From an archaeon (lineage in GTDB: Archaea; Nanobdellota; Nanobdellia; SCGC-AAA011-G17; GW2011-AR17): 64,000 nt of DNA. The DNA is taken from positions 21,972 through 85,971 of the forward strand of contig JABHZQ010000025.1 in the NCBI GenBank assembly GCA_018656555.1, read 5' to 3'. A model generated the notes under the pieces. It saw only the letters and a list, made by a program, of their open reading frames with translations. It was not told the origin of the DNA and did no database searches. A program made the translations under genes and the position numbers. Shown here in pieces: positions 16,480-31,582 of the stretch. The stretch's first letter is position 1, and every line of letters begins with the position of its first letter.

Positions 16480-17067
16480 ATGAAATTTTTAGCTGTTGGG
16501 GATATACATGGAGATGTTGATTTGGCTAAGGAATTGGCTAAACAGGCTAGTGAGGAAAAGGTTGATTTTGTAGTTATTTGTGGAGATATATCTAATTCTG
16601 ATGATAATTTTCAAGGGGTTATGGGTTTATTTAAGCAGAAGGTGTTTTTAGTTCCTGGAAATCATGATTCTGAAGCAACTATTGAATTTTTAGCTGAAAT
16701 GTATAAAGGAAAGAATTTGGAAGGTTATGGTTATAAGATGGGAGATGTGGGTTTGTTTGGTTGTGGTTCTGTTAATTTGGGTTTATTCCAAAAGAGTGAG
16801 AATGAAATCTTTGATTTGTTGGGAAGAGGTGCTAAGTATATTAGTGAATGTAGGAAAAAGATTTTAGTTAGTCATGTTCATCCAGCTAATTCTAAGATGG
16901 AAAATTTTGGTTGGGAAGGAAGTAAGGGGTTAAGAGGAGCTATTGATAAATTTAAACCTGATTTTGTTTTATGCTCTCATTTACATGAGGCTGAAGGTAT
17001 TGAAGAGATGATTGGCGATACTAAAGTTATTAATGTGGGTAGAAAGGGTAAAATTATAGAAGTTTAG
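16480..17067 (+). CDS. Metallophosphoesterase (calcineurin-like)
   Basis: GDIHG, CGD, PGNHD, SHVHP, SHLHE motifs; TTTATAAA 22 nt upstream. Confidence 0.9.
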   Translation: MKFLAVGDIHGDVDLAKELAKQASEEKVDFVVICGDISNSDDNFQGVMGLFKQKVFLVPGNHDSEATIEFLAEMYKGKNLEGYGYKMGDVGLFGCGSVNLGLFQKSENEIFDLLGRGAKYISECRKKILVSHVHPANSKMENFGWEGSKGLRGAIDKFKPDFVLCSHLHEAEGIEEMIGDTKVINVGRKGKIIEV

Positions 17068-17075
17068 AAAAAAAT

Positions 17076-17116
17076 AAAAGGCGTGATCAAAAGGGGGAGG
17101 TGTGATCACCTTTTTT
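17076..17116. other. GC-rich stem-loop (possible bidirectional terminator or small RNA); loop carries GGGGGAGGTG / CACCTCCCCC
   Basis: GTGATCA 17083-17089 pairs with TGATCAC 17103-17109; A-run on the left and T-run on the right. Confidence 0.6.
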
Positions 17117-17140
17117 CTTAATATTAGATATCTTATAGTG

Positions 17141-17150
17141 GTTTATAAAC
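17141..17150. promoter_or_regulatory. Palindromic TATA box GTTTATAAAC with no assigned CDS
   Basis: Perfect palindrome; topA already has its own TATA at 17194-17202. Confidence 0.45.
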
Positions 17151-17224
17151 AAAAGGAATAGAAAATATAGATTAGAGCTCTATATTTGGAAACTTTTAAA
17201 TAAGGTTTGAGATTTTTGATAGTG

Positions 17225-19333
17225 ATGACTACACTTATTATAGCAGAAAAGCCAAGTGCTGCAAAGAAAATTGCAGAGGCTTTAGCAGATGGTAAAGTAG
17301 AGAAGAATATCTATATGAAGAAAATACCTTATTATGATATAACTTACAAAAAAAAGAAAATCTATGTTGTTTGTGCTGTGGGTCATTTGTATAATCTAGT
17401 GGAGAGAGAAAAAAAAGGTTGGATTTATCCTGTTTTTGATATTAAATGGGATGAAGCACATAAGATTTCTAAGGGTTCTGCTTTTACTAAGAATTATTTA
17501 GCTTTAATTAAAAAATTAGCTAAAGAATGTAAAGAATTTGTTGTGGCTACAGATTATGATGTTGAAGGAGAGGTTATTGGGTATAATATTGTTAAATATG
17601 CATGTAAAAAAGATGATGCAGAAAGAATGAAGTTTTCTACAACAACTAAAGAGGATTTATTAGATGCTTATGATAAGAGAGAGAAACATCTGGATATTGG
17701 GCAAGCAATGGCTGGGGATACTAGACATCATTTAGATCATTTTTTTGGAATTAATTTATCTAGAGCTTTGACATTATCAGTAAAAAATGCAACCGGTACG
17801 TTTAAGGTTTTATCTAGTGGTCGGGTTCAGGGACCAGCTTTGAAAACTTTGGCTGAAAGAGAATTAGAAATTAATAAATTTGTTCCTGTCCCTTATTGGG
17901 AGATTGAATTGGCTTGTGAGGAATTGAGTGCTTGGCATGAGAAAGGGAAATTTGATGAAAGGAAGAAAGCTGAGGAAATTGTTAAAAAATGTAAAGGTAA
18001 GAAAGCTATTGTTGAAAAAATAGAAAAGAAAAAGTTTAAGCAAGCACCACCAAATCCTTTTGATTTAACTTCTTTGCAGATGGAAGTTTATAGAGTTTTT
18101 AGGATTCAACCTAAAGAGTGTTTGGCTATTGCTCAAGAGCTTTATACTAATTCTTATATTTCATATCCAAGAACTTCTAGTAATCAATTATCTGAAAAAT
18201 TAGGGTTTAAAAAAATCTTGGGAAAGTTAGCTCAACAGAAATGGTATAAACCTTTATGTGATGAATTGGTGAAGGGTAAATTAAAACCAAATAATGGTAA
18301 GAAAACAGATCCAGCTCACCCAGCTATTTATCCTACTGGAGAAGTTCCACAAGGTATTGAAGGTAGAGAGAAAAAGGTTTATGATTTGATTGTTAAGAGA
18401 TTTATGGCTACTTTTGCTGAGCCGGCTTTGAAGGAAACGGTGAATGTTAAAATTGATGTTAATAAAGAAAAGTTTTTGGGTAAAGGTACTAGAACTTTGG
18501 ATGAAGGATGGCATAAATATTATGATCCTTATGTGAAGAAAGATGAAGTTGTGATTGATGTTACTGAAAAACAGGAATTGAAGATTAAGGAGTTGTTCTT
18601 ACATGATAAGGAGACTCAACCACCAAGGAGATATACTCCTGCTTCTATAATTAAGGAATTGGAGAAAAGGAATTTAGGAACTAAGGCAACTAGGTCTGAG
18701 ATTATTGAGCATTTATTTATGAGGAATTATTTGAAGAGAAATGGAAGTATTGAAGTTACTGATTTAGGTTTAGAAACTGTTAGGGTTTTAGAGAAGTATT
18801 GTTCTGATGTTTTAGATGCTGAGTTAACTAGGGGATTTGAAGAGGATATGGAGAAGGTTAGATCTGGTAAGGTCAAGGAGAAGAAGGTTTTGGATGATGC
18901 TCAGAAGTTTTTAACTAAGGTTTTGGCTAAGTTTAAGAAAAAGGAGAAAGAAATTGGGCAAGAGTTGTATGAGTCATATAAAGAAACACAGAAAGTGGAG
19001 AGTTTTGTTATGAAATGTAAGTGTGGAGGGAATCAAAAGATAACTTATTCTCCTCGGTTTAAGAGTTATTTTATTGCTTGTAGTACTTATCCTGAATGTA
19101 AGATAACACATTCTTTACCAAGAGGATTTTTGGCTAAGAGTTCAGATAAGGTTTGTAAGGAATGTGGATTTCCAGAGGTTATGTTAATTTCTAAAGGGAA
19201 AAGGCCTTGGGCTTACTGTATTAATCATGATTGTCCTCAGAAGGTGGCTTGGAGAAAGGAGCATCCTGAGTATTTTGCTAAAAAAGAAGTTAAGGAAAAA
19301 GTTGTTAAGAAAAAAGTTAAGAAGAAGAAATAG
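17225..19333 (+). CDS. topA: DNA topoisomerase I (type IA)
   Basis: TOPRIM LIIAEKPSAA, ATDYDVEGE, SSGRVQGP, active-site YISYPRTSS, LGTKATR, C-terminal Zn ribbons. Start moved to ATG 17225, 22 nt after TTTTAAATA. Confidence 0.97.
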   Translation: MTTLIIAEKPSAAKKIAEALADGKVEKNIYMKKIPYYDITYKKKKIYVVCAVGHLYNLVEREKKGWIYPVFDIKWDEAHKISKGSAFTKNYLALIKKLAKECKEFVVATDYDVEGEVIGYNIVKYACKKDDAERMKFSTTTKEDLLDAYDKREKHLDIGQAMAGDTRHHLDHFFGINLSRALTLSVKNATGTFKVLSSGRVQGPALKTLAERELEINKFVPVPYWEIELACEELSAWHEKGKFDERKKAEEIVKKCKGKKAIVEKIEKKKFKQAPPNPFDLTSLQMEVYRVFRIQPKECLAIAQELYTNSYISYPRTSSNQLSEKLGFKKILGKLAQQKWYKPLCDELVKGKLKPNNGKKTDPAHPAIYPTGEVPQGIEGREKKVYDLIVKRFMATFAEPALKETVNVKIDVNKEKFLGKGTRTLDEGWHKYYDPYVKKDEVVIDVTEKQELKIKELFLHDKETQPPRRYTPASIIKELEKRNLGTKATRSEIIEHLFMRNYLKRNGSIEVTDLGLETVRVLEKYCSDVLDAELTRGFEEDMEKVRSGKVKEKKVLDDAQKFLTKVLAKFKKKEKEIGQELYESYKETQKVESFVMKCKCGGNQKITYSPRFKSYFIACSTYPECKITHSLPRGFLAKSSDKVCKECGFPEVMLISKGKRPWAYCINHDCPQKVAWRKEHPEYFAKKEVKEKVVKKKVKKKK

Positions 19334-31540: not shown

Positions 31541-31582
31541 CAAACTCTTTCAGAGTTTGATCAGAGGAGAGGGCTGAAGCCC
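31541..31582. other. Two adjacent hairpins after fen (possible terminator or protein-binding site)
   Basis: CAAACTCT-TTC-AGAGTTTG (31541-31559) and GGGC-TGAA-GCCC (31571-31582). Confidence 0.45.

Follow-up and report, generated by a model that had tools for sequence, protein, structure and literature searches.

Three groups of small RNAs come closest to the locus described here. In Alphaproteobacteria, the cuckoo RNAs (alpha-r14/CcsR1-4/NfeR1) have an anti-Shine-Dalgarno-like, C-rich loop as their only conserved feature, with stems that covary freely, and pairing with Shine-Dalgarno (SD) sequences has been proposed as their mechanism (PMC4615179). RsaE is an sRNA with a UCCC motif that binds the SD and prevents formation of the initiation complex, and the C-rich box has been proposed as the signature of a class (PMC2790875). 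Among the archaea, sRNA162 of Methanosarcina mazei is a trans-acting sRNA with identified mRNA targets (PMC3510493). A literature search made without DPANN-specific terms returned no DPANN counterpart of sRNA162 and no other DPANN regulatory RNA, and Rfam holds no match to the hairpin presented below, either at the gathering threshold or at E values up to 10; the regulatory RNAs of DPANN archaea thus appear essentially uncharted. The host archaea have not been cultivated, and their tiny genomes contain few recognisable regulators.

Here we analyse a hairpin unit located between a metallophosphoesterase gene and topA in such an archaeon. The window, that is, the whole stretch of 64,000 nucleotides that was analysed, is part of a 1.08-Mb genome (G000, contig C5; 32% G+C), and its close TopA homologues carry the source labels Woesearchaeota, Nanoarchaeota or Nanoarchaeia archaeon. 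The unit is real, conserved and previously uncatalogued, and sequence comparison indicates that it is most probably a small RNA gene with an anti-SD loop.

Layout of the locus

The features of the locus are as follows (window positions).

16480-17067, plus strand: metallophosphoesterase gene (Pfam Metallophos), with its stop codon at 17065-17067.
17068-17079, minus strand: U-run (UUUUAUUUUUUU), the predicted terminator; it is an A-run on the plus strand and adjoins the stop codon of the convergent phosphoesterase gene.
17083-17089, minus strand: 3' arm of the stem (UGAUCAC), GTGATCA on the plus strand.
17090-17102, minus strand: 13-nt loop CACCUCCCCCUUU, with the conserved core ACCUCCCC at 17094-17101.
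17103-17109, minus strand: 5' arm of the stem (GUGAUCA), TGATCAC on the plus strand; eight other sequences replace this arm in relatives, with pairing always kept.
17110-17118, minus strand: A-rich 5' leader of the predicted RNA; the plus-strand TTCTTAATA over the predicted start and first leader bases is invariant in the four g1 sequences.
17111-17116, plus strand: T-run flanking the hairpin.
17119, minus strand: predicted transcription start, an A preceded by T, 30 nt from the first T of the TATA box, as in 140 leaderless genes.
17120-17141, minus strand: 22-nt spacer between TATA box and start, variable in sequence; its 18-nt variable core has the same length in 4/4 g1 sequences.
17142-17149, minus strand: palindromic TATA box TTTATAAA of the putative small RNA unit, invariant in four congeners and lying within GTTTATAAAC (17141-17150).
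17150-17158, minus strand: pyrimidine-rich element TTCCTTTTG (RNA-sense) at the place of the BRE; the pattern TTCYTTTYN is kept in g1, g10 and g11.
17165-17185, no strand: palindrome ATATAGA-N7-TCTATAT, the probable topA operator, between the two TATA boxes and inside the 45-bp block.
17188-17202, plus strand: canonical BRE (GGAAA) and TATA box (TTTAAATA, 17195-17202) of the leaderless topA gene, divergent from the unit and 30 nt before the ATG.
17225-19333, plus strand: topA (Toprim and Topoisom_bac), with its ATG at 17225.

The hairpin, its neighbouring A- and T-runs, the second palindromic TATA box and the TATA box of topA are all located where the preliminary description of the window had placed them. 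The hairpin pattern occurs only once in the 1.08-Mb genome, and the copy in the loop is the sole occurrence of ACCTCCCC in the window. The 82 kb of intergenic sequence contain about 20 distinct inverted repeats of at least 7 bp with at least three G-C pairs, of which the hairpin is one. An origin of the locus by promoter duplication or capture was considered and rejected: the 157-bp spacer that contains the hairpin has no second copy in the genome, the single 26-nt near-match being situated inside a coding region.

Some further features of the genome were noted in passing. The plus-strand GC skew is very strong (~0.4) across most of the window and lower where the genes are on the minus strand. 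A perfect hairpin, CAAACTCTTTCAGAGTTTG, at 31541-31559 of the window recurs exactly at two other places in the genome (contigs C5 and C25). Outside the window, at about position 32004 of contig C4, an intergenic hairpin (TCAGGTC/GACCTGA, loop GAGGAGGAGGG) lies between two plus-strand genes.

The loop matches the 16S rRNA tail

The 16S rRNA of this organism ends in GGATCACCTCCT, with GGAUCACCUCCU as the anti-SD. Read on the minus strand, the loop contains CACCUCC, which is an exact 7-nt match to this tail, as had been proposed from the archaeal 16S end. CACCUCC is all that the two share at this point, as the conserved loop core continues into CC, whereas the 16S rRNA continues into U. The wider proposal that the hairpin mimics the 16S tail holds for the loop, in which ACCUCCC(C) is conserved, but not for GAUCAC, the second stretch of likeness: this match requires a 2-nt insertion, is located in the stem and is limited to genus g1, the stem being replaced in other genera. 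As to pairing with 23S rRNA, GGGGAGGT in 23S yields only 8 complementary bases.

In line with the folding that had been anticipated, the predicted 51-nt minus-strand RNA has a folding energy of -9.2 kcal/mol (z = -2.8). A 71-nt minus-strand stretch reaches z = -3.4, compared with z = -1.5 on the plus strand. The hairpin folds on either strand, and the mean energies over instances of the unit, -8.7 kcal/mol for the RNA sense and -9.05 kcal/mol for the opposite strand, do not discriminate between the two; folding energy is uninformative in this respect, since on the plus strand U is available as a pairing partner for the G-rich loop.

The unit is conserved in related archaea

We found 13 instances of the unit in at least four genera (g1, g15, g10 and g11) of one Woesearchaeota-type family; the TopA relatives P0002-P0006 (73-83% identity) lie outside the set of compared loci. 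Within the genus, two other species (G001 and G002) and the metagenome contig L047 keep the loop GGGGAGGT, TTCTTAATA, the TATA box and the 45-bp block, and in these three sequences and in G000 the 18 nt between TTCTTAATA and the TATA box vary in sequence while their length is fixed. In G002 the GTGATCA arm is lost, and AAAAAAGAG pairs with CTCTTTTTT instead.

We regard G016, which belongs to another genus (g15), as the decisive comparative case. Upstream of its topA gene, the unit has a 9-bp stem of wholly different sequence and a 13-nt loop that again contains GGGGAGGTG; no plus-strand T-run follows the hairpin, after which come TTTATAAA and the palindrome. A separate plus-strand hairpin with a T-run precedes the unit.

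Pattern searches delimit the distribution of the unit. Among 240 genomes of the order, the motif-plus-TATA pattern was present in 9/36 genomes of the family versus 3/203 elsewhere, and further pattern searches gave extra copies in g10 and g11. The element is absent from more distant genera that have a phosphoesterase-topA spacer of 40-60 nt. When a 20-mer taken from the conserved block was matched against the 240 genomes, allowing 3 mismatches, only chance-level matches appeared outside g1; of its 25 exact matches in metagenome contigs, one is a true homologue. In G018 (g17), G014 (g13) and G008 (g7), the motif is accompanied by a TATA box but not by a clear enclosing hairpin.

MAFFT aligns the conserved loop core but leaves the stems out of register, so the stems were scored with a hand-made structural table and descriptor-like pattern searches. 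The 13 instances have nine unrelated stem sequences, always paired, with 5-12 contiguous pairs and no internal mismatch; the pairs comprise 103 Watson-Crick and 6 G.U pairs and zero A.C. At random intergenic positions, a stem of at least 7 bp is found by chance in 15% of cases, of at least 9 bp in 3% and of at least 10 bp in 1.3%. The loop core ACCUCCC, in turn, is present in 13/13 instances, always within the loop and usually nearer its 5' side; the full ACCUCCCC is present in 12/13, the exception being G012a, which has ACCUCCCA. It should be noted that the instances share kinship, so these counts overstate their independence. The loop conservation, upstream TATA box and stem covariation for which the preliminary description had suggested looking in relatives are hence all found, the first two in each of the 13 instances. 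Comparison at the sequence level therefore establishes a conserved structure with covariation, a strand, and promoter-like and terminator-like geometry.

An archaeal C/D box sRNA was also considered for this hairpin and rejected: GUGAUCA differs from the C box RUGAUGA, there is no CUGA (D box), and the arms are swapped for unrelated sequences in other genera.

The genes next to the unit change. On the hairpin side, there is a phosphoesterase gene in G000, G001 and G002, a protein kinase gene (Pfam Pkinase) in g10 (G011 and G020), small ORFs in g15 (G016) and other unrelated genes in g11. In L047, homology begins right at the stop codon of the upstream gene, the C-terminus of which looks by eye like that of a kinase, not of a phosphoesterase, its 72-aa fragment being without a Pfam kinase match. 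The gene that diverges from the unit on its TATA side is topA in g1, g15, g10 and G012, the last of which carries two copies of the unit, and a membrane-protein gene in place of topA in three g11 genomes (G021, G064 and G069). As the unit stays while the flanking genes change, it acts like an independent gene rather than the terminal part of a neighbouring one.

Two rearrangements at these loci may be recorded here. In g10, a kinase gene (L069:723-1472 and L070:938-1831, Pfam Pkinase) separates the phosphoesterase gene from the unit, and contig L047 has the kinase-like gene end described above at the equivalent place (L047:1951-2166). G000 and G002 lack the gene there, with the end point of the deletion at the stop codon. 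An insertion in G020 has placed a lipoprotein-like gene (L070:412-819; N-terminus MKKIILLLTLLLLVGC) between topA and the conserved block.

Orientation of the unit

Of the 12 instances for which stems were called automatically, 10 show, on the RNA-sense strand, a T-run of at least four no more than 14 nt past the hairpin. The run is also present in the two exceptions: in G001 the automatic stem swallows it, and T7 follows when the short GAUCA stem is used, and in G016 T7 comes after a second hairpin. On the opposite strand, a T-run after the hairpin is found only in G000. These numbers bear on the proposal that the hairpin is a plain bidirectional terminator, or an intrinsic-type terminator of the upstream plus-strand phosphoesterase gene. 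G000 by itself would agree with it, as 15 nt separate the hairpin from the stop codon and six T (in CTTTTTTCTT) come after it on the plus strand. However, the plus-strand T-run is missing or degraded in 11/12 instances, G016 has its own plus-strand hairpin with T-run ahead of the unit, and the unit persists beside different upstream genes; moreover, two-base A.C mismatches would break the plus-strand stems in g11, and the conservation of the loop would be left unexplained. The comparative data thus largely refute this proposal, which we consider very unlikely to be correct.

The wobble pairs provide another indication. Read on the minus-sense strand, all six are G.U, and the other strand would have A.C in their place; counted as independent events (5 G.U versus 0 A.C), the asymmetry has a two-sided p of 0.06 and is suggestive only. 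Taken together, the orientation signals support the minus strand as the sense strand of the putative RNA.

The opposite assignment, a functional plus-strand RNA, had been offered in two forms: a decoy resembling an SD, or a standby site, within the 3' UTR of the gene upstream, and a hidden ribosome-binding site of a 19-codon ORF (17102-17161). GGAGGTG is indeed a perfect SD on the plus strand, GGGGGAGGUG can fold with CACCUUUUUU through G.U pairs, and the ORF exists. Nevertheless, the 0-2 nt between its GTG and the SD are too few, its frame is broken by indels in the T-run in the two sister species G001 and G002, and the other genera have no such ORF. In addition, there is neither a plus-strand promoter nor a consistent upstream gene, and on this strand the g11 stems carry A.C mismatches. 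The decoy form is contradicted by these last observations, and either form of a plus-strand RNA seems to us scarcely credible.

Promoter and terminator signals

The signals of the genome were profiled from the flanks of 1094 predicted ORFs. At about one quarter of the starts, TTTAWAWA is positioned 30 nt (or 28-32 nt) ahead, so these genes are leaderless, and GGAGG is present at -16 to -10 in ~7% of starts. A matrix derived from 140 leaderless promoters consists of an A-rich BRE (MRAAA, -37 to -33), a TATA box from -30, and T(-1)A(+1), and the rule that applies genome-wide is that the first T of TTTAWA lies 30 nt before +1. Read leftwards from the palindromic TATA box, this rule puts the minus-strand +1 at 17119, which agrees with the start near 17118 that had been predicted from a spacing of 22-24 nt.

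The topA promoter scores 12.9 bits with the matrix, which is typical of real promoters. The TATA box of the unit has a perfect core, but its BRE scores -5.3 bits versus a median of +3.2, which is below 99-100% of 142 leaderless promoters; no A-rich BRE is present in either orientation. Such a BRE is found in about 99% of the promoters of this genome, and the tRNA promoters also carry a canonical one. The putative promoter of the unit is therefore atypical, and no other promoter in the genome has the layout of TTCCTTTTG followed by a TATA box. The preliminary description had spoken of an orphan promoter; if it is one, it is of an unusual kind, without the BRE of nearly all others.

A TATA-like box lies 29-57 nt upstream of the stem in all 13 instances. 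In a non-circular search, the family was scanned for ACCTCCCC followed by a T-run, the TATA box not being required. TTTAWAWA was present 31-57 nt upstream of the stem in 10/11 hairpin-enclosed sites versus 1/11 sites without a hairpin (Fisher p = 3e-4, or 1e-3 after collapsing close kin), the background being 1.3% of random positions with a TTTAWAWA-type octamer at such a distance. The stem never starts before the predicted +1 in the instances tabulated, and the T-A step is present at +30 in 8/12 of them. Thus, of the features that mark an independent transcription unit, the TATA distance, the T-A start and the U-run are conserved, and the BRE is absent.

Hairpin-type terminators are not enriched in the genome (8 found versus 7.2 expected), and T-runs after stop codons are also not enriched, being no commoner than A-runs; hence, the hairpin is not part of the routine punctuation of this genome. 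This is relevant to the view that the unit is a by-product terminator or insulator, i.e., that weak leftward firing of the BRE-less TATA box is stopped before it proceeds antisense into the upstream gene, giving an RNA without function in trans. The missing BRE would fit this view, and so would the usual position of the unit opposite another, divergent promoter and the lack of a specific target (see below). Such an element would not need a fixed loop, however, and yet the ACCUCCC core persists in every instance over nine stems. Nor would it need a hairpin: a U-run alone is generally held to be sufficient for archaeal termination, and the genome is otherwise without hairpin terminators. We therefore consider the by-product view unlikely.

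A candidate operator of topA

The palindrome ATATAGA-N7-TCTATAT has conserved arms and a varying centre in g1, g15, g10 and g17. It is unique in the genome and is absent from those g11 copies of the unit that do not adjoin topA. It lies directly upstream of the topA BRE and is a probable operator controlling topoisomerase I, or at least a candidate for one.

With such a palindrome nearby, the unit might itself be a DNA-level element of the topA regulatory region, with GGGGAGGTG as a protein-binding box or the inverted repeat extruded as a cruciform. It adjoins the strongly conserved 45-bp block that contains the operator-like palindrome, and its loop motif is conserved as a sequence. The arms, on the other hand, are conserved in their pairing only, and G.U pairs would be meaningless in duplex DNA; copies of the unit exist away from topA and without the palindrome, and the geometry of T-run and TATA box would have to be a coincidence. 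A role at the DNA level consequently appears quite improbable.

Proposed function of the RNA

Our preferred reading, which we hold to be probable though with modest confidence, is that the unit is a self-contained minus-strand gene for a small RNA of ~50 nt, which exposes an anti-SD-type loop and probably blocks translation of some mRNAs. The TATA-only promoter at 17142-17149 would drive transcription from a start near 17119, and the U-run at 17068-17079 would end the RNA. The predicted product of ~45-52 nt (window:17068-17119:-), or ~80 nt in G016, would consist of a 9-10-nt A-rich leader, the hairpin (17083-17109) and the U-run. Its hairpin would expose the C-rich loop with the core ACCUCCCC, which overlaps the anti-SD tail of 16S rRNA, and the exposed loop may base-pair with G-rich ribosome-binding sites (GGGGAGGU-like), thereby keeping the small ribosomal subunit off SD-led mRNAs in the way of bacterial sRNAs with C-rich loops. 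Transcription of the unit, its pairing partners and its effect are inferences. As most genes of this genome are leaderless, SD-led mRNAs are a minority here.

The predicted pairing energies of the loop and of the real anti-SD over 1088 start regions are correlated (r = 0.83), and for 51 of these regions the predicted duplex with the loop is at least as stable as -12 kcal/mol. Heading the list of predicted targets are the genes for ribosomal protein S5, ftsZ, a GATase and an S-layer-like protein, and the prediction is unspecific. No conserved specific target emerged: ftsZ and the S5 gene, the two top targets tested, lose complementarity across genera, and in the S5 gene the GGGGGA-type box is not kept across genera. 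The G-run ribosome-binding site of ftsZ (GGGGGA, 9-10 nt before the ATG; L138:60-103, orthologues L142-L144) was observed in g1 and g10 and not in g15 or g11. Thus, the 16S-mimic sRNA put forward in the preliminary description has gained a conserved loop, a conserved TATA box, a covarying stem and minus-strand signals, but not a specific conserved target.

A more far-reaching version of the same idea is that the ~50-nt anti-SD mimic acts as a global switch, titrating all SD-led mRNAs or a protein that binds the 16S 3' end and so favouring leaderless translation, with its BRE-less promoter coupled to the divergent topA promoter through supercoiling or a shared operator. We think it improbable that this version as a whole is right. 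Dim2 and Nob1 are factors that bind the 16S 3' end, and a role of the RNA as a decoy for such proteins is conceivable.

Comparison with known systems and implications

In terms of architecture, the unit resembles a bacterial intrinsic terminator in that a hairpin is followed at once by a U-run. It differs in that what lies upstream on the same strand is not a gene but a TATA box, 29-57 nt from the stem, and in that its loop is under selection. With the class of C-rich/anti-SD-loop sRNAs it has in common an unpaired, SD-complementary C-rich motif and a conserved structure with compensatory changes.

If verified, this reading would have several implications. Because most mRNAs in this genome are leaderless, the RNA could discriminate between two classes of messengers. 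The unit also offers metatranscriptome studies a short and concrete target with predicted 5' and 3' ends, and it draws attention to an unusual BRE-less promoter beside topA.

Like the unit, the cuckoo RNAs have a C-rich loop that in part equals the anti-SD, compensatory changes in their stems and a terminator after the hairpin. Unlike the unit, they are bacterial, have the motif CCUCCUCCC and two to four hairpin modules, and often occur in tandem clusters, whereas the unit has one hairpin, the motif ACCUCCCC and an archaeal promoter. Membership of the cuckoo family (Rfam alpha-r14 and relatives) was accordingly rejected, as the motif is not CCUCCUCCC, the hairpin is single and there is no covariance-model match; the relation is one of analogy only. 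RsaE/RoxS and other UCCC-motif sRNAs of Staphylococcus and Bacillus likewise have an unpaired C-rich motif, but RsaE/RoxS-type sRNAs are ~100 nt long, carry several motifs and have been demonstrated experimentally, whereas the RNA of the unit is a predicted one of ~50 nt with one motif. sRNA162, which reportedly acts by masking a ribosome-binding site, is archaeal like the unit; it is unrelated in sequence, longer, composed of two domains and euryarchaeal. The unit is homologous to none of these RNAs. If our reading of it is correct, the masking of ribosome-binding sites by C-rich loops, which is known from Firmicutes and Alphaproteobacteria, would exist in a DPANN lineage as well.
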